Positions 27,951 through 56,207 of a DNA stretch of 64,000 bases are shown piece after piece. Within the stretch, counting starts at the first letter, position 1. Every line of letters begins with the position of its first letter. This DNA comes from an uncultured Prevotellaceae bacterium (GTDB taxonomy: Bacteria > Bacteroidota > Bacteroidia > Bacteroidales > Bacteroidaceae). The position numbers and the translations under genes are program-made. The stretch spans positions 5,986 to 69,985 of the forward strand of contig ONCZ01000002.1 of the NCBI GenBank assembly GCA_900316445.1. The letters run 5' to 3'. The notes below the pieces were generated by a model, which was given only the letters and a program-made list of their open reading frames with translations, was not told the DNA's origin and made no database searches.

Positions 27951-27987
27951 TCTTTATTTTTTAGTTATCATTTCTTATTTTAGGCTA

Positions 27988-27995
27988 CAAAGATA
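27988..27995 (-). promoter_or_regulatory. -7 box (TATCTTTG on the minus strand) for the 829-aa protease gene
   Basis: caaagata lies 38 nt upstream of the ATG at 27950, immediately downstream of hairpin copy 2. Confidence 0.5.
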
Positions 27996-28001
27996 CAAAT
28001 A

Positions 28002-28032
28002 AATCCCGAAACGACCAAACATTTCGGGAATT
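28002..28032. terminator. Conserved CCCGAAAC hairpin, copy 2
   Basis: aatcccgaaacgaccaaacatttcgggaatt. The loop is identical to copies 4 and 6. It ends the long protease operon. Confidence 0.75.
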
Positions 28033-28058
28033 ATTTATTAATAACTAAGGTGTAATAA

Positions 28059-31000: not shown

Positions 31001-31922
31001 CGTCAATGACAAAAGCATGTCCTCCATAACCTGTCATAGATTCTCCGAAGCCAGAGTATATCACAGGTCGGCCTCCTGCCATCTCAGCATACATCAGGTT
31101 ATCCCACTCTTCGTCTGTATATTCTTCCTTAACGACAAATTGCGCACCATCTGGATATCCAAAGATATTCTTTAGCAACTCTGGTATGATTGAAGTATCT
31201 GCGGCAGACTCATCTACACCATAATTCATCTGAACTGCTTGTCCACAATAGAGCATCAGATTGCCAAGGAATTGCAGGCTCTCAGTTCCCCAGCCGAATT
31301 TGATGGGCTCCAACTGAGGCATGTATATCTGATTAGACCATGTGGTATATGCGGGGACTGTAGACGTGTAATCCTTAGGCCAACGGTTATAATTCAGAAC
31401 CTGAGCCATAGCAGTTGCCACACAGCCGGTCACAGAGCGTTGCCCATTATAAATAGGACATTTGGTATTATATGGGAAATCCTGTCCCCATTCTGTTGCC
31501 ATCAGTGTCTCTACTTTTGCACGTCCTTCTGCTCCACGGGTTCTGGCAGGGCGGATATAGTTCTTGTCGTTGGCAATAGCAGTGAGGACCTTCTCGTAAT
31601 AGTTAAGAAGTTCTTTTACATTGTCAGGAACGCTGTCAACATTCAGGCTACCACGGTCTGAATAGCCGAGGATGGGCTCTGTACGGTCATCACCTGAGAC
31701 AATCACAAAGCCCTTCTTGCCTTCAGCATTGAAGACATAAAAGGCTTCATATTCCGCAGGGCTGTCAGCTTTCTCACCTCTGGCAAAGGCTTTCACTTCC
31801 CCGAACTGTTTCCCCGGCATAAACTGCCGGGCCTTCTGCAAGGCTTCCTGCTTGGATACTCTCTCAGCATTCACAACCACCGTCACCATGACGGCCAAAA
31901 GTGTTAACAGCAACTTCTTCAT
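28059..31922 (-). CDS. Giant C10 cysteine peptidase with BspA-type LRR, thioredoxin-like (degenerate CxxC) domain and dockerin-like module
   Basis: VTGCVATAMAQV and GGHAFVIDGYDSGRYHVNWGWDG. LRR_5-like segment (NCQELTSLSI..NCPKLKTIEF). TWCGWSPRG. C-terminus GDANNDEKVDNKDIESIVRYI...NADVNGDNKINAKDIVTLVNMI. Confidence 0.85.
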   Translation of the reverse strand: MKKLLLTLLAVMVTVVVNAERVSKQEALQKARQFMPGKQFGEVKAFARGEKADSPAEYEAFYVFNAEGKKGFVIVSGDDRTEPILGYSDRGSLNVDSVPDNVKELLNYYEKVLTAIANDKNYIRPARTRGAEGRAKVETLMATEWGQDFPYNTKCPIYNGQRSVTGCVATAMAQVLNYNRWPKDYTSTVPAYTTWSNQIYMPQLEPIKFGWGTESLQFLGNLMLYCGQAVQMNYGVDESAADTSIIPELLKNIFGYPDGAQFVVKEEYTDEEWDNLMYAEMAGGRPVIYSGFGESMTGYGGHAFVIDGYDSGRYHVNWGWDGQSNGFFMLTGLNVTGNSFNDYQDAVIGIQSPEGTSGIVKPKAQVYSVVYNGEKKYFWRRDDGTFPKFNMFANVYSTTGEKEKLQLGWGLFNEKGFVTVYAQEQHEIGSDESESYGYFASIVIDDKIADGDYCLLPVCRGSDSEEWSADVANLYGSGLRPDYYTEIRISNNLMKLIYDGTSKSFERDNHGYLIKDGIAFDLWQDLDEKHYATVITPQSGHYSGDIVIPDVISHNSKDYKVYDADLTTFENCQELTSLSISMIQGPRIWNCPKLKTIEFREGTTDYPDKNRIFLCDKLKTIKFNTINQLLFQGCPFEDYLPALTDVYFMSIYPPSQPPFYGEDNFSVKENVTLHIPKGAMPDYQKSGWKSWNLSDDLVVENKAVKWGYVNDNNTGHYNSPEIGSLERCDVDLAIHVPAEMIGKYKDQKITGIEFFCINMLNSNFPDYVFITKPGTDYLVKQSVTVSRTTGWKSIILSEPYIITGDELYVGIGRYYVHDFGISSFEPHDYDGQWCRIMGGDKTWENRYNEETGHPLTLRFIIEGENLPKDLRLCQPKMVNEDSTNKIQVSVVNRCADLLTSYAIKWDFDGKVNGTKTIETCLASCLAETLEIDVPTELEGYHHTLTLDVVSVNGIEDAIPANSHLVYEFTSSANHYPRKMVLEDFVGTWCGWSPRGYVATEKMHEKYPNNFIPIEIHENSCYGAADAVGEPYNYGKYITEYSSTPTFLINRLKTIDSTLDEAAKAYEEQKDHADAIIQSNVVFVPEDNTSVTVKTSTTFGFTDEGHTDFRIAYVVVEDNVGPYSQANFYSDSSMPDNPDDYMNEWYKKGSPVEMRFNDVARGIYPDLNGMEGSVPTSVVAGQTYEYEYTFDLPDNIQDKKNIRIVTLLIDNKSGEIMNADRTNVIKESEMLGDANNDEKVDNKDIESIVRYIMNGDINGFNIKNADVNGDNKINAKDIVTLVNMIKKM

Positions 31923-31961
31923 ACTTATTTTGCTTTTAGATTATTCTATCTTGTCATTCCT

Positions 31962-34900
31962 TTATTTGATCTTGTTTATGAGCACAATATCAACGATATT
32001 CACTTTCTTGTCACCATTCACATCGGCATTCTTGAAGTTGAAGCCATTGGCATTGCCTTCTATGATATATTGTGAGATAGCATCAATGTCTTTGGAGTCC
32101 ACCACCCCATCGCAATTGGCATCACCAGGAATGTCAGTTTCCTGTACGACTTTCGCCTGGCCGGCATTAATAATCCGACCCGTGTTCTTGTCTAACAACA
32201 GTGCGACAGCAGAGAGCTTTGTCTTGTCCTGGATATGGCTGTTGTCCGTGATGTCAGCCCTCAAGGTATAGGGATTCGCCTGGCCAGCCTTGACACTGGT
32301 CGGGATGGTTCCTTCGATGCCTTTATATGGGCTCCAAGCAGCCACTGGCACGTAGTCATATTTCAAGCCTTCAATCTTGCTGGGCATATTGCACCATTTG
32401 TCAAACATAGGATCTTCTGGATATGGATTATTATCTGCAAAGCCATTGACCTGAGCCCATGCAGAGCCTGTCCCGCTTAAACCATCCTCTAACAAGACAA
32501 AGCCCAACTGGAATGGCAGATTGTCGGCATCCATTTCAAACTGGGTATCAGCACTAATGTCAATCTTGTTATGATCCTCATCTGCCCAAACAGCACGTAC
32601 GTTGACAGAACCTGGCACAACCATATTCAAGGCATACTGTACATCCCTATCAATTCCAAAGCGATCTGACATCCAGTATGTTAAATACTCACGTTTCGAA
32701 CCAATGTAAACATCTACCGCTTTCTTACGATTAACATATGTAACAGAAGAATTAGTGAGTGTCAAAATTTCATGATAATCATCAATTTCCATGATATCCA
32801 GATGGTGAATGACTATCGGAATAATCTTATCTCCATACATCTCACATAGTTTCTCTCTGACGGATATCCCCATAGGGCTATAATTGTATACCACTCCTGT
32901 TTTCTCCTCAAAGACGACATTCGTCTCTGGTTTTTTAGTCAAAGTAAACAAAGTACCTGTATCCGAGATATCTTTCTGGGCAGTATTGGCTACGCCATTG
33001 ACTTTCGTGATGGTGATGGTCTTCTCGTCATAACCTTGAACAGGGTCGGAATCTAACTCAAGGGTAACAGCCCTTTTGTTAAATGCCGGAATAGAGAGAG
33101 TAGCTTCTTTTTCGTATGAACCACTTTTTTTACCTGATACCTTATAGCTGATACTATTGACATTATTACCACCGTCATTAACGAGCACAAGTTCGGCTTG
33201 AGCCTTTCCATTCAAAATTGCAGAAGCGTGATTAAACCCAAGGACTCTGACGGCATTCTGATTGTAATTGCCACCACCAAACAACACATAAACCCTCAAA
33301 TTACCCCATTGGGGAACCAAATTCTCCCAATTGGACTGAAATGAAGGTCTTACCCAGAAAGCGCCTTCGCGATTCAACTCAGATCTTACACACTGCAAAG
33401 GATAACCCGCATTCATACCGCCCTCTGTGATATCAAAGGAATAGCCTACATAGAGACCTTCTTCAGGTATCACATGAGAATGTTTGAATGCTACTTGATG
33501 GTCTCGGAACATCTCTGTAGCCAACTGGCTATTGGGAACATCCAAAATCTCTACATCAGCATCCATTTCAGACTTAGGCAAATGAGTAGATACCCATAAG
33601 GTAACATTTTGCATCGCAAGAGTATTCCTGTAGATGTTGATACCATCAATAGTCGTACCTTGTCCACCCACCAAGTTGAAGGGGATATAAACGGCTACAT
33701 GATATCGTATGCCAACCCGTTCCTTACCAATGATATTAGTATTTTCACCCTCGCTATTATACATTTCCACTTCATCATGATTGCTCCACCACATCTGTCC
33801 TTCCTTCAGCTCCACATTATTGACAATCTGTACACCATCATCAATGGGTGTATCCGATGAAGCGAAAGGAATAGCTCCAGAGCTGTTGGCAGCCAGGGCG
33901 TCATCCTTACCATTAACTTTTGTAACCTGATAGATCAACTTATGGTACCTGTCAGAGAAGGTAGCTTCAAAGTTGAAACCTGCTTCCATCGAATGTCCTG
34001 GGCGCAAATCTGCCTCCAGCATTTTACTTCCTTGGTGACTGCCGTCAACATCCCATTCTAAGACAAACGATTTTACAATTTCCTGCGAATGGTTTTGCAC
34101 GGTCATCTTCACATCATAATGGTCTTCTTTCACATCAGATTTCTCCACTTGGATATCCATTACTGCCACATCGAGTGCCATATTATCACCACTGATGACA
34201 AACTTCAAAGGGATGGGATGCTCAAAATCTATAGTCTGATCCGGCATATACTTCCATGTTCCGGGCTCCATACCCTGACTATGATCATCACCCATCGTCC
34301 TGTACCAAAAACCGTCAGGAGCACTCACTTCGATATTTGACATATAAGTAGATATCAAACCATGACGGCCTACACCCACATACAGCTCGTCACCCGTGAT
34401 GGTATATGGCTCTGACAGTTCTATATCCATCCAGGCATTCTCCAAGATCTCAGCGTTCTGCTTCACGATATAGTCAGTACCCGGTTTGGTGATAAAGACA
34501 TAATCGCAAGCCTCTGTCGGCTGATAGAATAGTATATGGCTGATGGACTTTCCTATGTATGGAACCAGTACCTCAGCGGGAACATGAATGGCATACTCAC
34601 CATCGTTGTCACCACACTCGTCATAAACGGAATAAGGAGACACCTCATCACCATTGCAATAGCCCCACTCTATACCGTTAACCTCTGGCACGGGCTGGTC
34701 ATCCACGATATTCCACCCCTTCCAGCCTGCCGTTTCATAGTCAGCCTTGGCACCCTTGGGCACATGGATGGTGGTATTTGGATTCACAACAAACTCTCCG
34801 TCTTTCCAAGTAAAGACTGGTGGTTCTGGGGATGCGAAATAGACATCCGTCAAGGCAGGCAGAGACTCGGTATCCCAGTGAGGGTAGGAATAGAGAGTAA

Positions 34901-36788
34901 ACTGCCGTGGATTCTTGAAACGGATGGTCTTGAGCTTGGAACACCATTCTATACCATGATCTATCGTTGATAAAGATTTTGGGAACTCGATACTTTCAAG
35001 AAGATTACAACCAGAGATCTGTTTCAACGTGCATACGCCCTCACGCAGTTCTAACATTGAAAGTTTGGGGAAACCGCTCATATATGAGAAATAAGTGGTA
35101 GACAACGAAAGGGATGTCAGGTCTGGGAAATCGGAAAAGAGATTTTCGTCAAATTTACTGACATAATAATCCTTGGACTTGTATGATATCTGGCTGGGGA
35201 TATTTAATGTTCCCTTAGGTTTGCTGTCACCAAAGCTGATGATGGAGGCCCGGCCTCTGTCGTACTGATTGTAGACTGAATACGTGATGCCATCGACTGT
35301 CATCACTCCCACATCATCAATAGAACGTTCTTCCCAACTCAGCATAAAGGTACGTAAACGCATCCACTGCCCATCAATCTTAATCTCCAGATAATAGTCT
35401 GACGAGTTGGCTGCTGCCAACCAGTTGGCTGATTCATCTGTCCGGCAAATGGGCACAACACGATAGGTTCCGTCAGAGATGGTAGAGGGTATTGCAAATG
35501 TAGCATCCATACGGTATTCCTCGCCAACAGGGAAGGTATGACTCTCTTCATATAGCACTTGTTGCAATCCGTCACTGTCATAAAGACCATATCCAATTTG
35601 TATGGACATGCTTTCAGACAAGTCGCTGACAAGTGCTGACGACAAATTGATGTTGGTAAATGAGCCACTGGCATTACGAGGCACAATACGGCTGCCACCA
35701 TAATTGACTTCCTTGACCACAGCCTTAGGCCTGTCCACCACATTGCCAGTAGGAGGTTGGATGCTGATTGTTGCAGATTGATCTGAAGTAAAATCACTGC
35801 CACCTGGATTAAGATTCGTCAGCGCAAAGAAGCCATCTTCACTACCACTCCAGCCCCAATTGAAATGAAAACGACCATTTCCATCATAGCCGTCACAAAC
35901 AAACTCATGGCCTCCAGCACTGCCCTGTCCGTCATAGATAATGGGACGACCTTCTGCCAGTTCATTGTACAACAGTAATTCCCAGTCATCATCTTGATAA
36001 CTACTGCGTTCCACACGGTGAGTGGTCTGGCTATAGCCAAACACATTGATCAACGCAGGAGCAATCAGAAAGGAGTTAGCACCAGACTCACCAACGCCAT
36101 ATTCCATCCGGACAGATTGTCCACAATAGAGCATGAGCCGCGAAATGTCTGCATTGGTCATATTATCCCAAGCAAACTCTGTCGGTTCAAGTTGAGGCAT
36201 TTCTATGCCTATAGACTGTGGCGTGTAGGCATCCACACTATTCGTTGGTCCCTGAGGCCAACGGTTGTAGTAAATCACCTGGGCCATGGCCGTCGCCACA
36301 CAACCTGTAACACAACGGTGTCCATTATACACAGGACAGAGATCATTATAGGGAGTACCCTGATCCCATGTCGTCGTGATCAATGGATTAATAGCCGACA
36401 TGGAAGACCTGTCCAAAGAACGTGTCTTTATCTTATTGGGCTGTTCATTTAAAGAGTTGGCCACCTTCTTATAATAGCCCAATAGCCATTTCACGTTGCA
36501 GGGAGCCGTCTGCTGGTCCAGGGATCCATGATCAGAATAGCCAAGGATATCAGGCATGCGGTCATCACCGCTGATGATCACAAAACCACCCTTGTTCTCT
36601 ACATTGAAGATATAGAACGGTTCAACTTCAGCTATTCCTCCAGAACGGGCAAAGGCTTTTGTTTCCCCAAACTGCTTGTCAGGCATAAACTGCCGGGCCT
36701 TCTGCAAGGCTTCCTGTTTGGATACTCTCTCAGCATTCACAACCACCGTCACCATGACGGCCAAAAGTGTTAACAGCAACTTCTTCAT
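31962..36788 (-). CDS. Giant C10 cysteine peptidase with LRR, Ig-like domains and dockerin-like module (1608 aa)
   Basis: VTGCVATAMAQV and AGGHEFVCDGYDGNGRFHFNWGWSG. C-terminus GDANCDGVVDSKDIDAISQYI...NADVNGDKKVNIVDIVLINKI. Confidence 0.85.
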   Translation of the reverse strand: MKKLLLTLLAVMVTVVVNAERVSKQEALQKARQFMPDKQFGETKAFARSGGIAEVEPFYIFNVENKGGFVIISGDDRMPDILGYSDHGSLDQQTAPCNVKWLLGYYKKVANSLNEQPNKIKTRSLDRSSMSAINPLITTTWDQGTPYNDLCPVYNGHRCVTGCVATAMAQVIYYNRWPQGPTNSVDAYTPQSIGIEMPQLEPTEFAWDNMTNADISRLMLYCGQSVRMEYGVGESGANSFLIAPALINVFGYSQTTHRVERSSYQDDDWELLLYNELAEGRPIIYDGQGSAGGHEFVCDGYDGNGRFHFNWGWSGSEDGFFALTNLNPGGSDFTSDQSATISIQPPTGNVVDRPKAVVKEVNYGGSRIVPRNASGSFTNINLSSALVSDLSESMSIQIGYGLYDSDGLQQVLYEESHTFPVGEEYRMDATFAIPSTISDGTYRVVPICRTDESANWLAAANSSDYYLEIKIDGQWMRLRTFMLSWEERSIDDVGVMTVDGITYSVYNQYDRGRASIISFGDSKPKGTLNIPSQISYKSKDYYVSKFDENLFSDFPDLTSLSLSTTYFSYMSGFPKLSMLELREGVCTLKQISGCNLLESIEFPKSLSTIDHGIEWCSKLKTIRFKNPRQFTLYSYPHWDTESLPALTDVYFASPEPPVFTWKDGEFVVNPNTTIHVPKGAKADYETAGWKGWNIVDDQPVPEVNGIEWGYCNGDEVSPYSVYDECGDNDGEYAIHVPAEVLVPYIGKSISHILFYQPTEACDYVFITKPGTDYIVKQNAEILENAWMDIELSEPYTITGDELYVGVGRHGLISTYMSNIEVSAPDGFWYRTMGDDHSQGMEPGTWKYMPDQTIDFEHPIPLKFVISGDNMALDVAVMDIQVEKSDVKEDHYDVKMTVQNHSQEIVKSFVLEWDVDGSHQGSKMLEADLRPGHSMEAGFNFEATFSDRYHKLIYQVTKVNGKDDALAANSSGAIPFASSDTPIDDGVQIVNNVELKEGQMWWSNHDEVEMYNSEGENTNIIGKERVGIRYHVAVYIPFNLVGGQGTTIDGINIYRNTLAMQNVTLWVSTHLPKSEMDADVEILDVPNSQLATEMFRDHQVAFKHSHVIPEEGLYVGYSFDITEGGMNAGYPLQCVRSELNREGAFWVRPSFQSNWENLVPQWGNLRVYVLFGGGNYNQNAVRVLGFNHASAILNGKAQAELVLVNDGGNNVNSISYKVSGKKSGSYEKEATLSIPAFNKRAVTLELDSDPVQGYDEKTITITKVNGVANTAQKDISDTGTLFTLTKKPETNVVFEEKTGVVYNYSPMGISVREKLCEMYGDKIIPIVIHHLDIMEIDDYHEILTLTNSSVTYVNRKKAVDVYIGSKREYLTYWMSDRFGIDRDVQYALNMVVPGSVNVRAVWADEDHNKIDISADTQFEMDADNLPFQLGFVLLEDGLSGTGSAWAQVNGFADNNPYPEDPMFDKWCNMPSKIEGLKYDYVPVAAWSPYKGIEGTIPTSVKAGQANPYTLRADITDNSHIQDKTKLSAVALLLDKNTGRIINAGQAKVVQETDIPGDANCDGVVDSKDIDAISQYIIEGNANGFNFKNADVNGDKKVNIVDIVLINKIK

Positions 36789-36828
36789 ACTTTTTATGCT
36801 TTTTAGTTATTTCTTTTTTGTCATTCCC

Positions 36829-39800
36829 TTATTTGATCTGGTTCAAAATTTTTACAATGTCTATCACATTCACTTTCCGGTCATTATTCGTTTCGGCATT
36901 CCACCAATTGAAACTTTCGGGTTCCTCGGCAGTCATAATGAAATCAGTAACAGCATCAACGTCTTTTTGATCAATGACCTTATTACAATCAGCATCTCCG
37001 CTCAATAGTTCACCCACGTCAACAATCTTGGCATTCTTAAGATCGAAACTATTACAATTAATAACAGGTTTCCCTGTCGTCTTACCTTCCAGATCCTCTT
37101 CTATGAAAGCAATAATATGCATATTATCTGTATTCCATTCTTGATTAAGACGCATATAATAACTCATTTTATAATGATTACCATGCCATATGATGGGATC
37201 TCCCCATAAATCTGAAGCGGTATCTTGTAAAACACCCTTATGTTTATAATCGGCAATCCAAGTATTATTCATTTCATCATACTGGGGAGCCACAAGATTG
37301 TCTTCCGTAAGATATACACTTAGTTTTGATGTAGCATGCAGAATATCAAATTCACTATTCTTATCTCCTTCTACGATTATTTTCAGTAACCGTTTATTTT
37401 TATCGTACTCCACATCAATATTCACATCAGCAAATGACGGCATTTCACGAAGCTTAGCAAAATAATATGAATCTGCCCCAAAATGTCTATTGGCATCTAA
37501 CACCAAACCGATAATACCACACTCATATTTCTTGAAAAACTCTTCACTGGCATTTGATGTCAGTTCATCCCGACAATGATAGGCAACAAGAGCCAAATCA
37601 TCATTTTCTTCTAACAACACATCCTGACGATTATTAGTATTGAGCGCATCGTGACACCATGTTGATGTAATATTCTCGACGAGTATCTTCTGTCTGGTCA
37701 TGCCCTCCTTATATACTCTAAAAGTATATGTGCCAAAGTCATCGTTGGGGAAAAGAGGCTTCTCACCACAGATCTCGTCAACATAGATTTTCACTTTGTG
37801 AAGTCCAACTGAGAGATTGTCAGGAAGATTAAAAGAATATATCTTATATGCTGCAGACGTTTGATCCAATTCCAGACCATAATAGTCTCCGCCTATAATA
37901 TCTTTCCCATCAATTTCTCCCTTGATGTGGAAATCATTACCTATCAACTTTTTACCCCAATTTTTCAGGAACAATGCAAACTGTAATTGCGCATGACTAT
38001 CATATTTATAATAATAAGGGTCAGGATCATTGAGTACCATGGATGTGACATGGATATCATATAAAGGAAGATGATCCCCCTCCAAGATACATTGCATGGC
38101 CAGGCAATTGTCATCTTCTTCAAGCCATTCGTATTCGTTGTTCTCTCCGTATGGTCCATATAAGCAAGCACTCCCTGGCTCCGCTGCACGAGAGCCACTA
38201 CTATTTGTGCCTCCCAAAATATAACTTATCGGATAAATATATCCTTCAGAGTTGTATTCAATACCCATAAAGATACTATCTCCTGTTATTACATACGGTT
38301 TTTCCAAAGACAACACATTCCAACCTAACTTCACATCTCCTATGGCCTGTTTGTAAATGTCCTTCTTGTCGCGAGATGATCCAATCCAGAAATAGACATC
38401 CGAAATATTCTTATCTATCAGGGCAAAGCGGAAATGTTTGATTGAAGCACCGACAAAAGACTGTATTGACTCTTTTGAGAAACTGATGAATGCCTTATAT
38501 GTACCAGCAGCCTGGCCTCCATAACCAAACAATTCGCTATATTCATCAGAACGATAATAACCAAAAAGCATCTGGCTTTCATCAATGTTTTCGAAAGGGT
38601 TGTCGCTGATTATCACATCTGGCATGTCTATTTCTTCGATGCTCTTGAAGTTCTCCCATCCTGCAGAGTTTTTATATATTCTGGCACGACCCTTCGGAAC
38701 ATATAAGGTTGCCTTCTGATAGGTTTCTTCTGAGAAAATATTCGCATTGATAGGAAGATATCCCTTACGGACCACAATCGATTCCAATTGAGTGCAATTG
38801 TAAAAAGCATAATCTCCGATGCTCATCAAAGATTGGGGGATTTCCAAGGATTTCAATTTCTCACAATTTACAAAAGAACTCTTTCCGATTTCTTTGAGAT
38901 TGGGTGGCAACTTGAGATTCTCAAGTCCTGTTCCATCAAATGCTCCTTCTTGAATGATTGTTATATGATCAATATGATGTATTTCCTTCAAGGAAGAACA
39001 ACATGAAAATGCTTGAATAGGAAATCCCGGTAATTTTGAATTCCAATGAATGACTTCAAGGTATTTTGCCCCCATAAAAGCACCCCAAGCCATACTCTCT
39101 ACACTTTCAGGAAGCGTGTATTCTTTCTGAGTCAATCCTCCAGCATACCCCATAAGATGATCCTTATTTGTTGTCAGCAATGCCCCATTCTCAACACAAA
39201 AATCCGTATTGCCTTCCTCAACAATCAATTCTGTTAAGTTATCACACATAGAGATGCAGTATTCCATGGTCCACATTCCATTCAAGGTGTTAAGTTTCAG
39301 TGACTTGGGAATGGTCAGAGTCTTTATCTGAGAACAACCCTCAAAGGCTCCTAAGAACCAATACTTCATGGAAGAAGGCATCTTTATTGATGTCACATTT
39401 TTACAATAGCTAAAGCCGTGGGCTGCAATTGCTGTTACTTTATACAGTTTTCCTTCTATTTCGACCGCTTCTGGTATAACAATGTCTCCTTCTATTTCCT
39501 GATTGGCTGCACTTACTTCTACTTCGTCCGTAGTATAAGGATTAAACTTCAGCCTCTCATCATGCGCAGCATCGGGCATCACTTTCTGTATCAGACTGTT
39601 GCCGCTAATGACAGCCTGAACATACCGCCAGTCTGAGCCTTCATCTGCTACCCAATCTGCAGTCTCACTCTCACGATAGATAGGAACAATGCGATAAACG
39701 CCTTCAGCCAAACCACTGCCGAATGAGAAGATGGCATTAAAGGTGATATTGAATCCAGGGGTGATGTCTATATTACCATATCCCAGCACTTTTTTCAACT

Positions 39801-41037
39801 CCGTACCCCGATAGAGTGCAAAGCCAATCTGGGCTGTCCCCTCCTCCATGAAAGCATGCTGAAGAATGGTCTTGATGGTGATGTCCGTGAAATCGGCAGA
39901 GGCAGATGCTCTTGTGACCGTCTCATTCGAAAGGAGTTCCAACTTTGTCACAGTCACCAAAGAATTACTGACGGCAGCATCACCCGTTGGCTTCTGGATG
40001 CCAATGATGGCAGTCTGGTCCTGACCGTAAGAACCTGTGCCGTCAGGATTGAGTGCCGTCAAAGTGAAGTAGCCATCAAACAAGCCGTCCCAGCCCCAGT
40101 TGATGTAGAACATACCATCCTGGTAGCCATGACAGATAAAGGAGTGACCACTGGTTATCGACTTTCCACCATAGATGACTGGACGCCCAGCCTTCAGTTC
40201 ATTGTAGATCATCGTCTCCCAGTTCTCAATGTTATAGCCATTGCGATAGACAATGCGCAGGCCTTTGTCATAGCCGAACTTTCCAATCATGGCTCCTGGG
40301 ATACGGGCATCGTAAGCACCAGAATTATCAAGGCCATAGTCCATGCCTACCGACTGGCCACAATAGCGCATCAGGCTGGCGATTTCATCATCAGTCATGC
40401 TGTCCCAGTTGAAGGTCGTGGCCGACAGTTTGGGCACCTGGAGGTTCAGGGTCTCTGTGGTATATGAAGCAATCTCACCTGTCGGGCCCTCTGGCCATCT
40501 GGTATAGTTCATGACCTGTGCCATCGCCGTAGCAATACAACCTGTCAGGCAGTTTTTGCCATGATAGGTCGGACACTGGTTGTTATAGGGAGAATCCTGT
40601 CCCCAAGTAGTGGTGATGAAAGGAGCAATGGCCTCCTTGACTCCTGACGTTCCACGAGTTGCTGACCTTTTGGCTCGTACTGCTGTATCGGATTTGCCAA
40701 GGTTTTCGAGTGCCTTTGTATACTCTCCAAGCCACCAGCGGACATTTTCAGGCATTCTGCCAAGATCAAAGCTACCGTGTTCTGCATAACCCAAGATGGA
40801 CTTCATACGGTTATCACCACCAACAATTACAAAGCCTCCATTATTCTCAGCATTGAAGATATAGAAAGGTTCATTGTTGTCTGGACGCTCTGATCGGGAG
40901 AAAGCCTTTGTCTCCTTGAACAGCTTGCCTGGCATAAACTGCCGGGCCTTCTGCAAGGCTTCCTGCCAGGATACTCTCTCAGCATTCACGGCCACCGTCA
41001 CCATGACGGCCAAAAATATTAATAGCAACTTCTTCAT
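36829..41037 (-). CDS. Giant C10 cysteine peptidase with BspA-type LRR and dockerin-like module (1402 aa)
   Basis: LTGCIATAMAQV and SGHSFICHGYQDGMFYINWGWDG. About 8 LRR_5-type repeats (AFEGCSQIKTLTIPKSL..., SFVNCEKLKSLEIPQSL...). C-terminus GDADCNKVIDQKDVDAVTDFI...NAETNNDRKVNVIDIVKILNQI. Confidence 0.85.
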   Translation of the reverse strand: MKKLLLIFLAVMVTVAVNAERVSWQEALQKARQFMPGKLFKETKAFSRSERPDNNEPFYIFNAENNGGFVIVGGDNRMKSILGYAEHGSFDLGRMPENVRWWLGEYTKALENLGKSDTAVRAKRSATRGTSGVKEAIAPFITTTWGQDSPYNNQCPTYHGKNCLTGCIATAMAQVMNYTRWPEGPTGEIASYTTETLNLQVPKLSATTFNWDSMTDDEIASLMRYCGQSVGMDYGLDNSGAYDARIPGAMIGKFGYDKGLRIVYRNGYNIENWETMIYNELKAGRPVIYGGKSITSGHSFICHGYQDGMFYINWGWDGLFDGYFTLTALNPDGTGSYGQDQTAIIGIQKPTGDAAVSNSLVTVTKLELLSNETVTRASASADFTDITIKTILQHAFMEEGTAQIGFALYRGTELKKVLGYGNIDITPGFNITFNAIFSFGSGLAEGVYRIVPIYRESETADWVADEGSDWRYVQAVISGNSLIQKVMPDAAHDERLKFNPYTTDEVEVSAANQEIEGDIVIPEAVEIEGKLYKVTAIAAHGFSYCKNVTSIKMPSSMKYWFLGAFEGCSQIKTLTIPKSLKLNTLNGMWTMEYCISMCDNLTELIVEEGNTDFCVENGALLTTNKDHLMGYAGGLTQKEYTLPESVESMAWGAFMGAKYLEVIHWNSKLPGFPIQAFSCCSSLKEIHHIDHITIIQEGAFDGTGLENLKLPPNLKEIGKSSFVNCEKLKSLEIPQSLMSIGDYAFYNCTQLESIVVRKGYLPINANIFSEETYQKATLYVPKGRARIYKNSAGWENFKSIEEIDMPDVIISDNPFENIDESQMLFGYYRSDEYSELFGYGGQAAGTYKAFISFSKESIQSFVGASIKHFRFALIDKNISDVYFWIGSSRDKKDIYKQAIGDVKLGWNVLSLEKPYVITGDSIFMGIEYNSEGYIYPISYILGGTNSSGSRAAEPGSACLYGPYGENNEYEWLEEDDNCLAMQCILEGDHLPLYDIHVTSMVLNDPDPYYYKYDSHAQLQFALFLKNWGKKLIGNDFHIKGEIDGKDIIGGDYYGLELDQTSAAYKIYSFNLPDNLSVGLHKVKIYVDEICGEKPLFPNDDFGTYTFRVYKEGMTRQKILVENITSTWCHDALNTNNRQDVLLEENDDLALVAYHCRDELTSNASEEFFKKYECGIIGLVLDANRHFGADSYYFAKLREMPSFADVNIDVEYDKNKRLLKIIVEGDKNSEFDILHATSKLSVYLTEDNLVAPQYDEMNNTWIADYKHKGVLQDTASDLWGDPIIWHGNHYKMSYYMRLNQEWNTDNMHIIAFIEEDLEGKTTGKPVINCNSFDLKNAKIVDVGELLSGDADCNKVIDQKDVDAVTDFIMTAEEPESFNWWNAETNNDRKVNVIDIVKILNQIK

Positions 41038-41070: not shown

Positions 41071-42165
41071 CTATTCAATCATGTTCACGATGAGTACAAT
41101 GTCGGTGGCATTGACTTTTTGATCACCGTTCATGTCGGCAGCATCCTTGTTGAAGTCCTCCGTTGGGTTCACGATATAGTTTGCCACCGCATGCGCATCA
41201 TTGATGTCTACCTTTCCATCACCATTCACGTCGCCTTTATTCAGACAAATGCGAGAGATACCCTTGAGTGTAGACCCCTCATAATAATAGAAATAGATGA
41301 TGCCTGAAAAAACTTCCTCAGGAGCCGTAAAGTTCAGCGTTTTACCGACAATCTCCACTGTACCTTTCGATGCGTATGCCGAAGTCAAAGAATAGTCCTC
41401 AGGAAGTCCTGTTTCCAGTGACACCGTTTTTCCTGCCTCTACCCTATAGTACTTGGGCGGTATGGCATAAGTAGTTATGGTTTTTTCTCCGTTAGTAAGT
41501 GTCACCTCTGTCGTTTCTGTGAGCCTTGTTCCCAGAATAGCCGTATGACTATCTCCGTCTATCTGAGCTGCCTCACTGACAGAACCACATTTTATGCTGG
41601 TGGCAGCCGACATGTTTGTATAACCCCGATAGCTGATCATTGGCTGACCACTACCATCAATATTCGCATAGAACTGGTATATGTCAAAGTAGGGCGCATC
41701 CTTCTCCATCTGCGAGCCCATTCCATAGAATGTGATATCACACAGACCAGGTGTATAGAAATAAGAGAAGTCGCTGATGTAGTTGTTGCTGACATCCAAC
41801 TTCAGGCTTTCGGACTGTATAAATGCCAGGATATTGATGTTCTCCAAATGGTTGTTGCTCAGGTTGAGCTCACGCAGTGATTCCAACGGCACCAATGGCG
41901 ACACATCGCTGATATCGTTATAACTGAGGTCGAGCTTGGATACTGCTGTCAGGTTAGCGACATCACGGATATCCGTAATCTCCAGTCCTGACAGGTTCAG
42001 CGTAGTGATGGTATCTGTTTGGGTCTGCAGCACATCGTCTGATTCACCAAGACCAATATGATGCCGTACACCATTTTCAAACTCAGGCGAATAAAAAGTC
42101 ACCTTCTGGGCCTGCGCCACCAATGCAGTCATCATGAGGACTGCTATACTTGCTATCTTTTTCAT
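41071..42165 (-). CDS. Internalin-type LRR protein with a C-terminal dockerin-like module
   Basis: Signal peptide. 22-aa LRRs ([28 protein letters not shown]). C-terminus [21 protein letters not shown]...[23 protein letters not shown]. Confidence 0.8.
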
Positions 42166-49933: not shown

Positions 49934-50155
49934 CTACCGAAACAATATGTCTGGGCAGACTCCAGCAACAAGATTGATTCCCGTGGGACCCATCTCGTCA
50001 AACTCCGGCATGAATCCCAATGCCTGAACATCGTCAATTGTAGCACGCTGAGCCTGAACCGTCAGACCTAAGCCCAGCATCAATACCATTATCAGTTGTT
50101 TTCTTATATCCTTAAAAGTAAGTATATTCATTGTCTTTTCTTCTTTAGAATGCAA
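49934..50155 (-). CDS. Small secreted hypothetical protein
   Basis: Signal-like segment IRKQLIMVLMLGLGLTVQAQ. Overlaps the stop of the upstream gene. The start may be the ATG at 50131. Confidence 0.3.
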   Translation of the reverse strand: MHSKEEKTMNILTFKDIRKQLIMVLMLGLGLTVQAQRATIDDVQALGFMPEFDEMGPTGINLVAGVCPDILFR

Positions 50156-51131
50156 GGAATGGGCGGATGCGCAGATCGTTCTTGGAAATGATATGAGTTA
50201 TTTGGAAACCAGAATTTGCCAAGAAATATGTAAGAATGACTCGGGTTGTTTTGGGATATGTCTTTTCAGGAGAACATGTCCAAAATCTATAGTTATTGAT
50301 ATTGACCGTTGTATCGCCCGCTTTTCTCAAGTCACCCAAAATCAGATCTCCAGCTTTGGAGCCATTATAGATCGGTTTCCCATTGGCATTATATCCATCA
50401 AATAGAGCGAAAGATCTCCAGTCAAGTTCAATACTTTCGTCAAATGTGAGACCGAATGACTGGTAGAAGGCTATATACTGTCCTGCACTGGGCATGAACC
50501 AACCACTGGTAATATTTCCAGGAGGAACGGGAACATCATAAGAAATAGGGACCTCAAGACCATTCCTGGCATCAATTTCAAAGAGTTTGTTAATGGATTC
50601 ATATCCAGAGGATTTATTGTTGATATGTTTACTACCATCTGTAATTTCCAAATCCGACAGGGCAATAGCCAATCCGCGATAGGTGTCGCTATTCTTGTCA
50701 GCCGATCCTGGTAAACCAACATACACGATCATGGCAATCGGCGTGATGCCGATAGTTCCTGCCGGATAGACCTTGCCGTCCAAGGCAATCACACTGCCCA
50801 GATCTTCTGCTGTGGCTTCACTCAACGCCTTGCCACGGTTCTGGCGCTTTGCCTCACTCATCATCAGATAGTCAGCAATGGTCTTCACGTCTTCCATATC
50901 GATTTTCCCATCGACATTGGCATCAGCCCAGATCTTCTTGACATCGACAATGACAGAAGTCCATAAGTTGTCTAAGTCAGAACGAGTCTTTAAGATGTAT
51001 TCTGATACAATCTCCACGATGTCAGCGACATCTACCTTACCGTCATTGTTGGCATCGCCCGATCCTGCGAACATAGCCGACGGCGTAAAGCACGCAAAAA
51101 ACAGAATTAACAGTTTCTTTCTCATATCCAT
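50145..51131 (-). CDS. Secreted protein with an N-terminal dockerin-like module and a DUF1566/Lcl-like C-terminal domain
   Basis: Signal peptide, then GDANNDGKVDVADIVEIVSEYI...ADANVDGKIDMEDVKTIADYLM. C-terminal motifs SGWFMPSAGQYIAF, FWTCSPE, LRIRPFLAF (weak DUF1566 resemblance). Confidence 0.65.
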   Translation of the reverse strand: MDMRKKLLILFFACFTPSAMFAGSGDANNDGKVDVADIVEIVSEYILKTRSDLDNLWTSVIVDVKKIWADANVDGKIDMEDVKTIADYLMMSEAKRQNRGKALSEATAEDLGSVIALDGKVYPAGTIGITPIAMIVYVGLPGSADKNSDTYRGLAIALSDLEITDGSKHINNKSSGYESINKLFEIDARNGLEVPISYDVPVPPGNITSGWFMPSAGQYIAFYQSFGLTFDESIELDWRSFALFDGYNANGKPIYNGSKAGDLILGDLRKAGDTTVNINNYRFWTCSPEKTYPKTTRVILTYFLANSGFQITHIISKNDLRIRPFLAF

Positions 51132-53010: not shown

Positions 53011-53139
53011 TTATGCTTCACCATCATCATCACATTCATCAGCAATTTTCTCTTTACTCGGCTCAACAACGTTGTCCAATACAACAACCTCATCAACCTT
53101 TACTTCTTCCATTTCGGGAGCAAAATACTTCTTTTTCAT
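53011..53139 (-). CDS. 42-aa acidic single-cysteine peptide (candidate RiPP precursor), not in the ORF track
   Basis: Hand translation: MKKKYFAPEMEEVKVDEVVVLDNVVEPSKEKIADECDDDGEA*. It has its own -7 box (53206-53213), its own terminator (52955-52986), and is preceded by hairpin copy 5. Confidence 0.5.
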   Translation of the reverse strand: MKKKYFAPEMEEVKVDEVVVLDNVVEPSKEKIADECDDDGEA

Positions 53140-53205
53140 TTCTCAATTATTTTTAAACGTTTAAAATATTAATATCTTTTAAGTTGCAATTACACTTTTG
53201 CGCTG

Positions 53206-53213
53206 CAAATTTA
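53206..53213 (-). promoter_or_regulatory. -7 box (TAAATTTG on the minus strand) for the small peptide gene
   Basis: caaattta lies about 67 nt upstream of the ATG at 53139. Confidence 0.45.
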
Positions 53214-53218
53214 AGCAT

Positions 53219-53250
53219 AAATCCCGAAATGACCAAACATTTCGGGATTT
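53219..53250. terminator. Conserved CCCGAAAC hairpin, copy 5
   Basis: aaatcccgaaatgaccaaacatttcgggattt, one mismatch relative to copies 2, 4 and 6. Confidence 0.75.
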
Positions 53251-53303
53251 ATTTTACGATTTAGTGCAATATTTTGTCAATTTACTCACTTAACAATCAT
53301 CAC

Positions 53304-54806
53304 TTACTTAACCACGACCTTCTTACCATTCTTGATGTAGAGACCCTTTCTGGTCGGAGTGCTAATGCGCTGACCCCTCAGGTTGTACCAAGCGTCGTTG
53401 CCAGATTCTGCAGCAATACGGCTGATACCTGTGGCACTCTCTTCATCACCATCAAAAAGAATTCTGCTCAACTCGGCAACTTTCTCGTTAAGAACGATAT
53501 CTTCGGAACCACGGACAGAAGCCTTAGCCGTATATGAAGTCAAGATCTGGAGATATGCCTTATGTGCACCTGTCGTACGAGCCTTTGTAACCGGCGTGAA
53601 GCCCTTGCTACCAACGTAGAAATTCGAGTAGAGTCCGTCTGTCGGCTGAATCGTGATTGCCTCATCGGTGTTATTGCCTACCATCATGTTGGCATAGTTT
53701 GCCTGAACAGCAGCAGACTTAATCGTATAATCACCCTGAGGACCCTTAATATAAAGCGGAGTACCAGCTGATACACGCTTAACAGGTGTAATCCAAAGTG
53801 AACCATTCTCATATCCTATCACGGTATAGGCAGTCACTGACTTCTGGTCGGTGAAATCAAGGTCAACATTAGCACAGAGAGAAGTCTGATTTGCTTCACC
53901 TATCGACAATGCCCAATCTGTACCAGCCTTAGCAGCAGGCAGAGCAGCTACACGGATGTAAGCTTTATGAGCACCAATGTTACGTGCAGATGTAAACGGC
54001 GTGAAGCCCTTGGTTCCCAAGAAATAGAACTTGTCTTCACTTCCTGTAGGATCAACACTAATAGCCTCATCCGTATTGTTACCAATCAGGAAGCTCTTGA
54101 AATAAGTCTTTGTCAGTGTTGTCGTAGCCACAGCGAAGGTTCCGGCCTCATTACCTTTGACGTAAATTGGCGTTCCAGCTGGAACCTGGCTAATGCGTGC
54201 CGACCAAATACCGTCCTCGTCAATACCTGTTACAAGGTAAGCGGTCAAATCTTTATTATCTGTGAAGTCTAGATCTTTGTCACAAATAAACGTCGTCGCC
54301 TTAGAATCACCAATAGTAATTGAAACGCCCTCAGCAATCGTGACAGTGGCAACATCGCCACCAGCCTGCTTTGTAGAGGTGCCTTCGGGATCAACAACCA
54401 GGTTCTGGTCTTCAGTACCATTGAGTGAAACTTTTCCAGTCTCTGCTTCATTTTCAGCCTCCAAGGTAATCAGCACACCATCACCGTCACTTGTCAAAGT
54501 AGCATTCTCATTATCGTATGACAAGAAACGATAGATATTGTTACTGGGATCAACCTGCTGGAACTTCAACTCACGGCCGGCACCGTATGAGCCTTTCATG
54601 CCTGCGCTTTTGACACTCACCTTAGCAGGCAACTTCAGATCGAATTGGAAAGCCGTGTTGCTCGTAGGTTTGTCAATCGTGACCTCCATCTGACCCGTAC
54701 CGCCTTTAGTAAGGGTAACATCTTTAACACTAATTGCCGACTGGGCATAAGCCATTGCTCCACAAAGGGAGACAGCCATCATCGTAAATAGTTTCTTCAT
54801 GTTCAT
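53304..54806 (-). CDS. Surface protein with an N-terminal cohesin-like domain, two copies of a ~125-aa repeat domain and a T9SS-type C-terminal tail
   Basis: Signal peptide. AISVKDVTLTKGGTGQMEVTIDKPTSNTAFQFDLKLPAKVSV resembles the cohesin beta-sandwich start. Internal duplication (LDFTDNKDLTAYLVTG...GAHKAYIRV and LDFTDQKSVTAYTVIG...GAHKAYLQI). Tail WYNLRGQRISTPTRKGLYIKNGKKVVVK. Confidence 0.55.
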   Translation of the reverse strand: MNMKKLFTMMAVSLCGAMAYAQSAISVKDVTLTKGGTGQMEVTIDKPTSNTAFQFDLKLPAKVSVKSAGMKGSYGAGRELKFQQVDPSNNIYRFLSYDNENATLTSDGDGVLITLEAENEAETGKVSLNGTEDQNLVVDPEGTSTKQAGGDVATVTIAEGVSITIGDSKATTFICDKDLDFTDNKDLTAYLVTGIDEDGIWSARISQVPAGTPIYVKGNEAGTFAVATTTLTKTYFKSFLIGNNTDEAISVDPTGSEDKFYFLGTKGFTPFTSARNIGAHKAYIRVAALPAAKAGTDWALSIGEANQTSLCANVDLDFTDQKSVTAYTVIGYENGSLWITPVKRVSAGTPLYIKGPQGDYTIKSAAVQANYANMMVGNNTDEAITIQPTDGLYSNFYVGSKGFTPVTKARTTGAHKAYLQILTSYTAKASVRGSEDIVLNEKVAELSRILFDGDEESATGISRIAAESGNDAWYNLRGQRISTPTRKGLYIKNGKKVVVK

Positions 54807-54856
54807 TTAATATTTTAAATTAATTATTAGTTACACATTTATATACTATTTGGTTG

Positions 54857-54864
54857 CAAATTTA
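54857..54864 (-). promoter_or_regulatory. -7 box (TAAATTTG on the minus strand) for the cohesin-like gene
   Basis: caaattta lies 51 nt upstream of the ATG at 54806. Confidence 0.5.
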
Positions 54865-54869
54865 AAAAA

Positions 54870-54906
54870 AAATCCCGAAACGACCAAACATTTCGGGACT
54901 TTTTTT
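54870..54906. terminator. Conserved CCCGAAAC hairpin, copy 6, with runs on both sides
   Basis: aaaaaaaaatcccgaaacgaccaaacatttcgggacttttttt. Confidence 0.8.
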
Positions 54907-54938
54907 CAAAAATAGTATGATTTTTCTTTTTTCCCCCT

Positions 54939-56207
54939 TTATTCTGCTATGGTGTGCTCCTTCACAATCTGGATTACCTTCACCAAATCAGCCACATTGA
55001 CAGTACCATCTCCATTGACATCGGCCAGTGTCAAATTAAAGACAACGGGAGGTGCGCCCATGATATAATCGACAATGGCATTTACATCATTCAAGTCAAC
55101 AATACCGTTGCCATTGACATCGCCTGGGAGATCAACACTACCGGTACACTTGGCATAGTAGATCTTGCCATGAGCCGTGGCGCGTCTTCCGATTCTGGTG
55201 CCAGCCCGGACAGCACTGGCTTTCTCTACCATATATATATATACATAGGTGTCTTCATTTACATCGTATGGTACTGACAGCCATTTGCGTGTCGTACTGG
55301 ATATTTGGACTGGGGCATTGTCGCCAACCTTCACATGGAAGGCAAAGTCTGACTCATTCTCTGCTTCTATTTTGATGAAGCCCTTACCTTTGCTCACCAT
55401 CATGGTGATACCTCCGGCAAAGTCAATGGCATAGCCACCATCTCCAGGAGAATAGCTATGATTTTTAACAGCATTATTCACATTATCGACAGCAGCGTCA
55501 GTAAGTAGCGACCCAATATAAATGACACCCTCGCCATCCTCATCCTCAAAACCATCATCATTCGACCCGTCCAATGTAAAGAGAATGCCTCTATAAGAAT
55601 AGTTAGACAGGTCTGCTGACGACAACTCCGAAGGATCAAAGGCCACAGTTTTATCATTTTCGAGAGGAACTACTGCATCATCAATATAGACCGTGACACT
55701 CCTTAGCCCAGAGACTGACGCGCCATTCGTTGCTGACTGAGGTGATGCGATAAACTTTAGGGACAATGGTTCTGACAGCATGCCATAGGATAATTGTGTA
55801 ATACCGTAATCCATTGTCTTCTGATTATAAACCAGTTCTCCCAACTCTGTCTGACCGACATACGCCTTGAGTTCCAAGCCGTAAGCATTATCGCATGTGA
55901 CACTGACACTCTTAATCGTGCCAGAAAAAGTTTGTGCGGACGTCAGTGTCAGTGAACTCTCTGCGACGTCAGAAGGACTGAGATAGAAGTAAAGAGCATC
56001 GGCATCTTCAGAATAGCCAAAATTGCCGACGGTTCCTGTGTCGGAGTAAGTCCACACTATGGCACCATTTGCATTCATGATGCTGCCTTTTGACGGAGTG
56101 CCAAAGCCGATAGTATATTCTGAGGCCTGGCCTGTCAACGAACTCAGCAATAAGGGCAGAGCCAACATGAATGCCCTCCAGTTTTTTGAGTAGTGATAAT
56201 TTGACAT
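54939..56207 (-). CDS. Secreted protein of unknown function with a C-terminal dockerin-like module
   Basis: Signal peptide (AFMLALPLLLSSLTGQA). C-terminus GDVNGNGIVDLNDVNAIVDYI...LADVNGDGTVNVADLVKVIQIV. Only 26 nt downstream of the PP2C gene, with no promoter box between. Confidence 0.7.
   Translation of the reverse strand: MSNYHYSKNWRAFMLALPLLLSSLTGQASEYTIGFGTPSKGSIMNANGAIVWTYSDTGTVGNFGYSEDADALYFYLSPSDVAESSLTLTSAQTFSGTIKSVSVTCDNAYGLELKAYVGQTELGELVYNQKTMDYGITQLSYGMLSEPLSLKFIASPQSATNGASVSGLRSVTVYIDDAVVPLENDKTVAFDPSELSSADLSNYSYRGILFTLDGSNDDGFEDEDGEGVIYIGSLLTDAAVDNVNNAVKNHSYSPGDGGYAIDFAGGITMMVSKGKGFIKIEAENESDFAFHVKVGDNAPVQISSTTRKWLSVPYDVNEDTYVYIYMVEKASAVRAGTRIGRRATAHGKIYYAKCTGSVDLPGDVNGNGIVDLNDVNAIVDYIMGAPPVVFNLTLADVNGDGTVNVADLVKVIQIVKEHTIAE

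Follow-up and report, generated by a model that had tools for sequence, protein, structure and literature searches.

Which protein could receive the dockerins encoded by Prevotella of the rumen? Rumen surveys have found many dockerins in Prevotella and other Bacteroidetes and hardly any cohesins, so that the partners of these dockerins are a puzzle (PMC6487960, PMC6071333). Bensoussan et al. (2016) reported dockerins of Prevotella in metagenomic data from the bovine rumen, among them a "peptidase C10 family protein-DOC", and almost no Bacteroidetes cohesins (1.7% of 61; PMC6487960); in a survey of 2018 there were bins of Bacteroidetes in which 11 dockerins stood against 0 cohesins (PMC6071333). 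In this work we have analysed a stretch of 64,000 nucleotides of contig ONCZ01000002.1 from an uncultured Prevotellaceae bacterium, which we call the 64-kb window. It encodes seven dockerins and, at 53304-54806, one protein of 500 amino acids (aa) whose N-terminal domain we predict to be a cohesin. We consider it fairly likely that this protein is a monovalent anchoring scaffoldin of a Gram-negative cohesin–dockerin system of rumen Prevotella.

The cohesin gene and its product

The open reading frame (ORF), taken from the ORF list, and the parts of its product are as follows:

53304..54806, minus strand: predicted cohesin gene, 500-aa protein with signal peptide, cohesin, repeat 1, repeat 2, linker and tail
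54744..54806, minus strand: signal peptide, residues 1-21, with a signal peptidase I cut predicted from family conservation after AYA, leaving an N-terminal Gln
54327..54743, minus strand: predicted cohesin domain, residues 22-160 (family-level PF00963 matches, profile, Foldseek)
53922..54314, minus strand: repeat domain 1, residues 165-295, all-beta (repeat hidden Markov models (HMMs), AlphaFold)
53523..53921, minus strand: repeat domain 2, residues 296-428, 41% identical to repeat 1
53307..53495, minus strand: putative C-terminal sorting region, residues 438-500, with a short beta-hairpin, an acidic disordered linker containing a TGI motif, and the tail core
53307-53396, minus strand: tail core WYNLRGQRISTPTRKGLYIKNGKKVVVK, residues 473-500, at the C-terminus, inside the 471-500 segment scored for conservation

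A preliminary description of the locus had given the same order of signal peptide, cohesin, two repeats and conserved tail, and the ORF, the comparison of the repeats and the conservation of the tail bear it out; all peptide stretches quoted there are present in the translation of 53304-54806. Because the family consensus begins at the second ATG (MKKLF...), the true start of the gene may be 54800. A homolog search returned 274 relatives, nearly all of ~500 aa and either without a name or called "hypothetical protein", from uncultured Prevotella or Prevotellaceae genomes of rumen and gut. The identical 500-aa protein occurs on five contigs, and the four displayed are independent metagenome assemblies. 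Within the signal peptide A21 is invariant across the family and A19 nearly so, Q22 is the consensus residue, and we expect signal peptidase I to cleave after AYA. A lipoprotein was ruled out, since the Cys at position 15 is not conserved in the family.

The assignment of the N-terminal domain comes from the family and from the predicted fold. Pfam Cohesin (PF00963) is matched by 10 of 35 aligned full-length homologs that are 39-70% identical to the window protein (best E = 1.1e-7), and family members P0064, P0067, P0069, P0076, P0082 and P0096 carry the PF00963 annotation in the database. The family profile aligns with the cohesin of Clostridium perfringens NagJ over the whole domain (residues 29-153), with a marginal E of ~0.1. 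An AlphaFold model from the single sequence was unusable (predicted local distance difference test score, pLDDT, of 37); the model used here was built on an alignment of 116 sequences and reached pLDDT 89 and a predicted template modelling score of 0.76. In this model residues 1-21 are disordered and residues 22-160 are all-beta, with the flattened beta-sandwich (jelly-roll) of ~140 residues that characterizes the cohesin fold. When the model was compared with the PDB by Foldseek, the top ~19 matches were all cohesin modules (target-normalised template modelling score 0.6-0.77, root-mean-square deviation 3-4 Å), among them 2w1n, 2jh2, 6kgf, 1g1k, 5nrm, 4ums and 2xdh (scores up to 0.77, deviations of 3.0-3.6 Å). 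They include the cohesins of NagJ/GH84C, C. acetobutylicum CohA2, C. cellulolyticum, A. cellulolyticus ScaB and ScaA, R. flavefaciens ScaB and P. cellulosolvens; beta-sandwich proteins of other kinds (YcnI, immunoglobulin domains) ranked lower.

Several results speak against a cohesin. The window protein itself has no PF00963 match at E <= 1 and no NCBIfam match, its own Pfam scan gave one chance-level match and no domain of cohesins or of the system for type IX secretion (T9SS), and a phmmer search with it against PDB sequences returned nothing. The only PDB sequence match of the family profile is the weak one just mentioned, and the specificity of cohesin for dockerin is not predictable from sequence here. 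Weighing the family matches together with the model, we nevertheless read the domain as a divergent cohesin under the sensitivity of Pfam. The cohesin postulated in the preliminary description is thus supported by the predicted structure, whose fold comparison placed cohesins on top, and by the weak NagJ alignment; the Pfam check proposed for it was negative for the window protein and positive at the level of the family.

Dockerins in the window and beyond

The seven dockerins of the window have both calcium-binding repeats intact. They are encoded by the following genes:

25461..41037, minus strand: four tandem Inhibitor_I69-Peptidase_C10 genes, each with a C-terminal dockerin (Pfam, C-termini read), at 25461-27950, 28059-31922, 31962-36788 and 36829-41037
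41071..42165, minus strand: leucine-rich repeat (LRR) protein of 364 aa with a C-terminal dockerin (Pfam Dockerin_1, E = 1.2e-13)
50145..51131, minus strand: 328-aa protein whose dockerin (residues 25-89) adjoins the signal peptide (Dockerin_1, E = 5.4e-5, passing the gathering score)
54939..56207, minus strand: partner gene, encoding a 422-aa secreted protein with a C-terminal dockerin, directly upstream of the cohesin gene (Dockerin_1, E = 2.2e-9)

Six of the seven proteins pass the gathering score of Pfam Dockerin_1 (PF00404; 22.9 bits). The other dockerin is the C-terminus of 36829-41037, which is visible by eye, aligns with both repeats and scores 92.5 bits with our local dockerin HMM; this model was built from these same seven dockerins, so its scores on them are circular, as are the 89-95 bits of the four I69-C10 proteins (829-1608 aa). 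The 36829-41037 protein additionally has LRR_5 and Omp28 domains. Six dockerins stand at the extreme C-terminus, and only that of the 328-aa protein directly follows the signal peptide. We briefly considered this last protein, which ends in ...RIRPFLAF, as an outer-membrane beta-barrel with a periplasmic dockerin, and dropped the idea on a by-eye reading of the sequence, which is a weak basis. The stop of a 1247-aa BspA-type LRR gene (42162-45905, minus strand), whose product has neither dockerin nor tail, overlaps the start of the LRR-dockerin gene 41071-42165 by 4 nucleotides (nt).

Does the window hold another receptor? The family cohesin HMM found no second cohesin in any window ORF of >= 60 aa, and Pfam found none in nearly all window ORFs of >= 150 aa (ORF 24849-25388 was left out). 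Within the window, therefore, the ratio of one cohesin to seven dockerins given in the preliminary description was confirmed, and the 500-aa protein is, as had been stated there, the sole candidate receptor for the local dockerins. Its cohesin would bind them in a calcium-dependent manner.

The association of cohesins with dockerins extends beyond this stretch. We applied the local HMMs (dockerin, cohesin, repeat and tail) to every ORF in the window and in 69 related Prevotellaceae loci, which had been collected via tail and cohesin motifs and not via dockerins. Of the 27 loci with a cohesin 25 also had a dockerin, as against 2 of the 42 loci without a cohesin (Fisher p = 2.7e-14). Each of the orthologous loci L001-L004 has, immediately upstream of its cohesin gene, a full-length ortholog of the 422-aa dockerin protein (49-57% identity). 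The pair of dockerin gene and cohesin gene is present on three of the four displayed independent metagenome contigs, and the fourth stops short upstream. Other Prevotellaceae loci encode small cohesin-dockerin adaptors of ~220 aa, proteins of ~1900 aa with a dockerin-cohesin-tail end, one 213-aa "cohesin-tail" protein, and ORFs with 2-4 tandem cohesins. Such adaptors and multi-cohesin ORFs, as predicted here, are hallmarks of genuine cohesin–dockerin networks.

Two further groups of loci were noticed in passing. A second conserved type of Prevotellaceae locus (L009, L013, L019, L024, L034, L037, L048, L054, L057 and L067; for example L009 8151-17057) encodes a small dockerin protein, a cohesin-dockerin adaptor of ~220 aa, a repeat-tail protein of ~380 aa, a protein of ~1900 aa that closes with dockerin-cohesin-tail, and a further cohesin-dockerin adaptor; it looks like a multi-component, possibly self-polymerising network. 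Scaffoldin-like ORFs with several cohesins stand beside dockerin genes in L069 (7396-9651; four cohesins and a weak PF18962 match at the end), in L030 (6287-13140; cohesin-dockerin-cohesin-tail plus cohesin-cohesin) and in L055 (9995-12343), a metagenome-assembled genome of Ignavibacteriaceae, where an ORF with three cohesins adjoins two dockerin proteins of 1420 aa and the contig bears strong canonical T9SS C-terminal domains (CTDs) as well.

A cassette of two repeats and a tail

The part of the protein behind the cohesin begins with two related domains. Repeats 1 and 2 are 41% identical over 129 aa (E = 6e-37), and each copy matches both repeat HMMs at E <= 1e-33; the two copies of a ~125-aa domain reported in the preliminary description are thus real, at a length of ~130 aa. 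The repeats have no Pfam, NCBIfam or PDB sequence match, and the Foldseek result of the full-length model is dominated by the cohesin. The tail core (residues 471-500) is the most conserved part of the whole family, with a mean top-residue frequency of 0.89 as against 0.53-0.57 in the folded domains.

These elements are widely shared. In the window and the 69 loci the tail terminates 30 of the 32 ORFs with repeats. In 94 of 99 carrier ORFs the tail stands at the extreme C-terminus; the carriers have lengths of 141-2802 aa and include GH43, BspA-type LRR and CBM77 proteins. An exhaustive phmmer search with the tandem of both repeats gave at least 900 cluster representatives at E <= 1e-3 (316 at E <= 1e-10), in proteins of ~180 to 2551 aa, and the tandem always ends ~73-86 residues ahead of the C-terminus, as it does in the window protein. 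The 144 newly listed representatives include 137 with the tail and 137 with two repeats exactly; a cohesin occurs in 17 and a dockerin in one, which also has a cohesin. A profile of the tail alone found more than 1000 matches in a database of 5.8 billion proteins, and those listed were short contig-end fragments, without names and without T9SS domains. The two repeats and the tail, then, form a generic C-terminal cassette common to hundreds of unrelated proteins, a point absent from the preliminary description.

What does the cassette carry elsewhere? Its closest carriers without a cohesin are proteins of the type I69-C10-LRR-...-rep-rep-tail (P0274, P0276), where rep-rep stands for the two repeats, together with I69-C10-rep-rep-tail (P0279), Omp28-rep-rep-tail (P0273) and LRR-rep-rep-tail (P0277, P0286). 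The classes fused to the cassette (I69-C10, BspA-type LRR, Omp28) are those which bear dockerins in the window, and the N-termini of the cassette-fused and the dockerin-tagged peptidases are clearly homologous. In the window and the 69 loci no dockerin-only ORF has a tail, and 28 of the 61 cohesin ORFs do. The simplest reading of this Rosetta-stone pattern is that a "cargo-cassette" protein has been split into "cargo-dockerin" and "cohesin-cassette". The fusions and the lack of a tail on dockerin-only proteins make it most likely that the cassette is provided in trans by the cohesin protein.

We therefore propose the following course of events. The cohesin protein would first be exported by the Sec pathway and lose its signal peptide. 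Its N-terminal cohesin would then bind the calcium-dependent dockerins of the neighbouring proteins, that is, of the four C10 cysteine peptidases with I69 pro-inhibitor domains, the LRR protein, the 422-aa partner and the protein with the N-terminal dockerin. The remainder would be a reusable cassette, made up of two repeats with a beta-sandwich fold, a flexible acidic linker and a nearly invariant tail of 30 residues. This cassette is present in cis in hundreds of Prevotellaceae proteins and most likely directs translocation across the outer membrane and retention at the cell surface, probably through the T9SS. The cohesin protein would thus lend its cassette in trans to any dockerin-tagged cargo, and with seven dockerins to one cohesin the cargoes would compete or exchange. 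A monovalent anchor had already been suggested in the preliminary description; it fits the evidence and is strengthened by the conserved synteny and the fusion analysis.

Is the tail a signal for type IX secretion?

The CTD of T9SS cargo is an immunoglobulin-like sandwich of seven strands and ~72 residues with motifs A-E, in which the export signal occupies the last 22 residues and includes the motifs PxGxYVV and KxxxK (PMC5445135, PMC4804311). The system moves folded cargo and is used by P. intermedia (PMC5445135). Among 92 tails, GxY(I/V) is found in 91 and a terminal KxxxK in 87; at the level of motifs, these correspond to PxGxYVV and KxxxK. The hairpin of the tail, Y-(D/N)-L-x-G-(Q/R)-(R/K)-V, resembles the D-x-x-G-R turn of CTD motif B. 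Tail-bearing proteins have signal peptides, the tail, like that of RgpB, comes after beta-sandwich domains and an acidic linker that is disordered, and its cargo classes (C10 peptidases, BspA-type LRR proteins, GH43) are typical of T9SS substrates. A sortase- or exosortase-type anchor is excluded, because no hydrophobic segment could be read in the sequence of the tail.

Other results count against a T9SS signal. PF18962, TIGR04183 and TIGR04131 were unmatched in the window protein, in 35 family members and in 10 other tail carriers, so that the TIGR04183 search proposed in the preliminary description was negative throughout. The tail profile matches no solved T9SS CTD in the PDB, and an hhalign comparison of the tail with CTDs from L058, L055 and L023 gave probabilities of 0.3-4.4%, which are not significant; homology to T9SS CTDs is for this reason not claimed. 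With ~45 conserved residues, and 5-7 residues between the hairpin motif and GxYI, the tail is too short for a seven-strand CTD, and at least one canonical strand (s5, motif C) is missing. The AlphaFold model has short strands at 440-450 and 472-499 with a disordered loop (451-470) between them, not a seven-strand immunoglobulin-like sandwich of ~70-80 residues. No gene of the T9SS machinery lies within the window.

These same results make room for a second reading, in which the cohesin docks dockerins as proposed and the cassette is a module peculiar to Prevotellaceae that serves some other route or function, such as binding to a surface glycan or an outer-membrane protein or packaging into outer-membrane vesicles. 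The short tail could be a class distinct from the more canonical CTD-like ends found on the Prevotellaceae contigs L023 and L058, and the dockerin cluster is adjoined by a capsule or exopolysaccharide locus with a glycerophosphotransferase. However, the missing profile matches are less telling than they seem: the recognisable CTDs on L023 and L058 score 19-20 bits against PF18962, for which the threshold is 27 bits, and the model is therefore weak in Prevotellaceae. GxY(I/V), KxxxK, the extreme C-terminal position and the cargo classes are all typical of the T9SS. We know of no other outer-membrane translocation route for large folded non-lipoproteins in Bacteroidota. A cassette working outside the T9SS is accordingly an unlikely explanation, if one to be taken seriously, and T9SS dependence of the cassette remains slightly favoured. 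Of the T9SS-type tail in the preliminary description, the part that stands is the likeness in GxY(I/V), KxxxK and the D/N-x-x-G-R/K hairpin, and the part that does not is the likeness in profiles, length and hhalign comparison.

Two observations on tails from other sources may be added. The tail profile matched only the C-termini of the PDB chains 4kca (E = 7.7e-12) and 7jvi (E = 1e-6), which are gut or rumen metagenome enzymes; no description of these tails was found in the literature searched, and a text search for the motif was also empty. In L058, from Prevotella, the protein encoded at 8726-9040 ends in a longer CTD, which opens with the ...AGIERI... motif of the short tail. The protein matches Pfam DUF6383 above threshold (25.7 bits) and PF18962 weakly, and may be a link between the canonical CTDs and the short tail.

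More questions are raised by the export of the cargoes. The dockerin proteins have Sec signal peptides and nothing past the C-terminal dockerins, and a reading of their C-termini found on none of them the tail of the cohesin protein or a lipobox. They are thus without a recognisable signal for crossing the outer membrane, and a simple docking outside the cell leaves their export unexplained, which is a weakness of the scheme proposed above. Could the cohesin protein take its partners along? In such a hitch-hiker export the cohesin would bind folded dockerin cargo in the periplasm and the complex would cross the outer membrane by means of the cassette, through type IX or an as yet unknown secretion pathway; the cohesin–dockerin pair would then be an export adaptor and not only a surface tether, and the cargo would afterwards stay tethered to the surface. 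The closest relatives of the cargoes do depend on a covalently fused cassette, no dockerin-only ORF bears a tail, and the T9SS transports folded cargo (PMC5445135). On the other hand, export would be stoichiometric and slow if a single cohesin had to serve seven large cargoes (up to 1608 aa), release of the cargo by vesicles or lysis or an unrecognised signal is conceivable instead, and the T9SS dependence of the cassette is itself a presumption. To our knowledge there is no precedent for piggy-back transport through the T9SS. Hitch-hiker export is quite unlikely, but if true it would be the first such T9SS mechanism and a new role for cohesin–dockerin pairs, and the tail would be a new minimal class of C-terminal sorting signal in Bacteroidota.

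It is very improbable that the N-terminal domain is a generic beta-sandwich (for example carbohydrate- or host-binding) with a cohesin fold only and no dockerin binding, its proximity to dockerin genes reflecting co-regulation of surface proteins: the window protein lies under every cohesin sequence threshold and YcnI and immunoglobulin domains do appear lower in the Foldseek list, but ten homologs match Pfam Cohesin (best E = 1.1e-7), only cohesins stand at the top of the structural comparison, cohesins and dockerins co-occur across the loci at p = 2.7e-14, and the same cohesin HMM picks up the adaptors and the multi-cohesin ORFs.

Promoter and hairpin elements

The sequence around the cohesin gene contains the following elements, of which the -7 box was read directly:

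54857..54864, minus strand: TAAATTTG, putative Bacteroidetes -7 box (TAnnTTTG) of the cohesin gene
54865..54897, minus strand: hairpin CCCGAAATGTTTGGTCGTTTCGGG with a T-run (hairpin 54874-54897)
53217..53252, minus strand: near-identical downstream copy of the hairpin, then TAAATTTG again
28005-28028, 45909-45932, 49200-49223, 53223-53246, 54874-54897 and 58281-58304, minus strand: copies of the hairpin in the window

We take TAAATTTG at 54864-54857 to be the probable promoter of the cohesin gene. The upstream hairpin (54874-54897), which is kept at the same position in L001, L002, L004 and L007, is likely the terminator of the upstream dockerin gene and/or an operator, and that at 53217-53252 is likely the terminator of the cohesin gene. 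The gene is bracketed by GC-rich hairpins and has a -7 box to itself, which supports the independent unit of the preliminary description. The 24-nt hairpin CCCGAAATGTTTGGTC(G/A)TTTCGGG has six copies in the window, all intergenic, where chance would give 0, and a TAnnTTTG -7 box follows 5 of the 6 at a fixed distance. Copies are found upstream of the cohesin gene, of a C10-dockerin gene, of the LRR operon and of a gene for a SpoIIE-type phosphatase; the hairpin recurs at equivalent positions in no loci but those of the closest relatives (L001-L007). Its role may be that of a terminator-promoter cassette used repeatedly, or of an operator by which a regulon is defined.

Neighbouring genes

Two overlapping genes on the plus strand (51327-52929) converge on the cohesin gene. 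They encode a radical SAM enzyme of 454 aa and a PqqD-like protein of 84 aa, and look like a peptide-maturase pair, similar to those of ribosomally synthesized and post-translationally modified peptides. Between the dockerin cluster and the cohesin region (45960-49190) are a DUF6078 protein and a VapE / BT4734-like primase-helicase, proteins typical of mobile elements. Directly beside the C10-dockerin genes, at 12422-24738 on the minus strand, lies a low-GC (0.37-0.44) polysaccharide locus of the Wzx/Wzy type, with a sugar transferase, CDP-glycerol glycerophosphotransferase, glycosyltransferases, EpsG polymerase, a flippase, a TupA-like ATP-grasp enzyme, a Wzc-like kinase and a Wza-like exporter; it would be speculative to connect this locus with surface anchoring. 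The dockerin, cohesin and polysaccharide genes are located in segments with a GC content of 0.37-0.47 (12000-46000 and 50000-56000) and the housekeeping flanks (valyl-tRNA synthetase, SurA-like, CorC) have 0.50-0.55, which is consistent with accessory or horizontally exchanged regions.

Meaning and comparison with known systems

The cohesin family, overlooked by standard profiles and recorded as "hypothetical protein", offers a concrete candidate receptor for Prevotella dockerins. If our proposal is true, these bacteria would possess a non-cellulosomal, Gram-negative assembly of SpeB-like cysteine proteases and BspA-like LRR proteins, not of cellulases, and this would matter for how one of the most abundant rumen genera degrades protein and adheres. 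As a candidate sorting module, the cassette occurs in at least 900 protein clusters, and defining it would improve the prediction of the Prevotellaceae secretome. The natural pair of a fused form (cargo-cassette) and a split form (cargo-dockerin plus cohesin-cassette) also gives a direct handle on the function of the cassette. We found no description of the cohesin family, of the rep-rep-tail cassette or of the split and fused forms in the literature searched, in which journal coverage was incomplete.

How does this system compare with those already known? Monovalent anchoring scaffoldins belong to the cellulosomes of Firmicutes, where R. flavefaciens ScaE carries a sortase signal and C. thermocellum SdbA carries S-layer homology (SLH) domains. 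Like these, the window protein has one N-terminal cohesin, spacer domains, a predicted C-terminal module for surface sorting or anchoring, and dockerin partners encoded nearby. Unlike them, it belongs to a diderm of the Bacteroidota, its presumed anchor is the rep-rep-tail cassette and not LPXTG or SLH, its cargoes are C10 cysteine peptidases and LRR adhesin-like proteins and not carbohydrate-active enzymes, and in most members of its family the cohesin is too divergent for Pfam.

The cohesin of C. perfringens GH84C/NagJ (2jh2, 2ozn, 2o4e, 2w1n) is the best match of our sequence profile and among the best structural matches. It assembles non-cellulolytic, host-directed hydrolases and not a cellulosome. 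NagJ differs from the window protein in being a Firmicute enzyme with an internal cohesin and no dedicated anchor, and the identity is only 14-22%.

With type A cargo of the T9SS (the IgSF-CTD of P. gingivalis RgpB; T. forsythia BspA) the window protein shares a Sec signal peptide, beta-sandwich domains, a flexible linker and a C-terminal beta-hairpin ending in GxY(V/I) and KxxxK, and the cargo classes, cysteine peptidases and BspA-type LRR proteins, are the same. Its tail departs from the CTD of these proteins in having ~45 conserved residues instead of a ~72-residue seven-strand sandwich, no motif C (strand s5) and no PF18962 or TIGR04183 match.

The dockerins listed by Bensoussan et al. come from the same group of organisms and have the same dockerin type and protease cargo as those of the window; the receptor family, the cassette and the fusion pattern are not described there (PMC6487960). 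The kind of system is itself known. What is new here, as we read the locus, is a cohesin–dockerin system with an anchoring scaffoldin in a diderm, a cargo of proteases and adhesins, and a new candidate sorting cassette.

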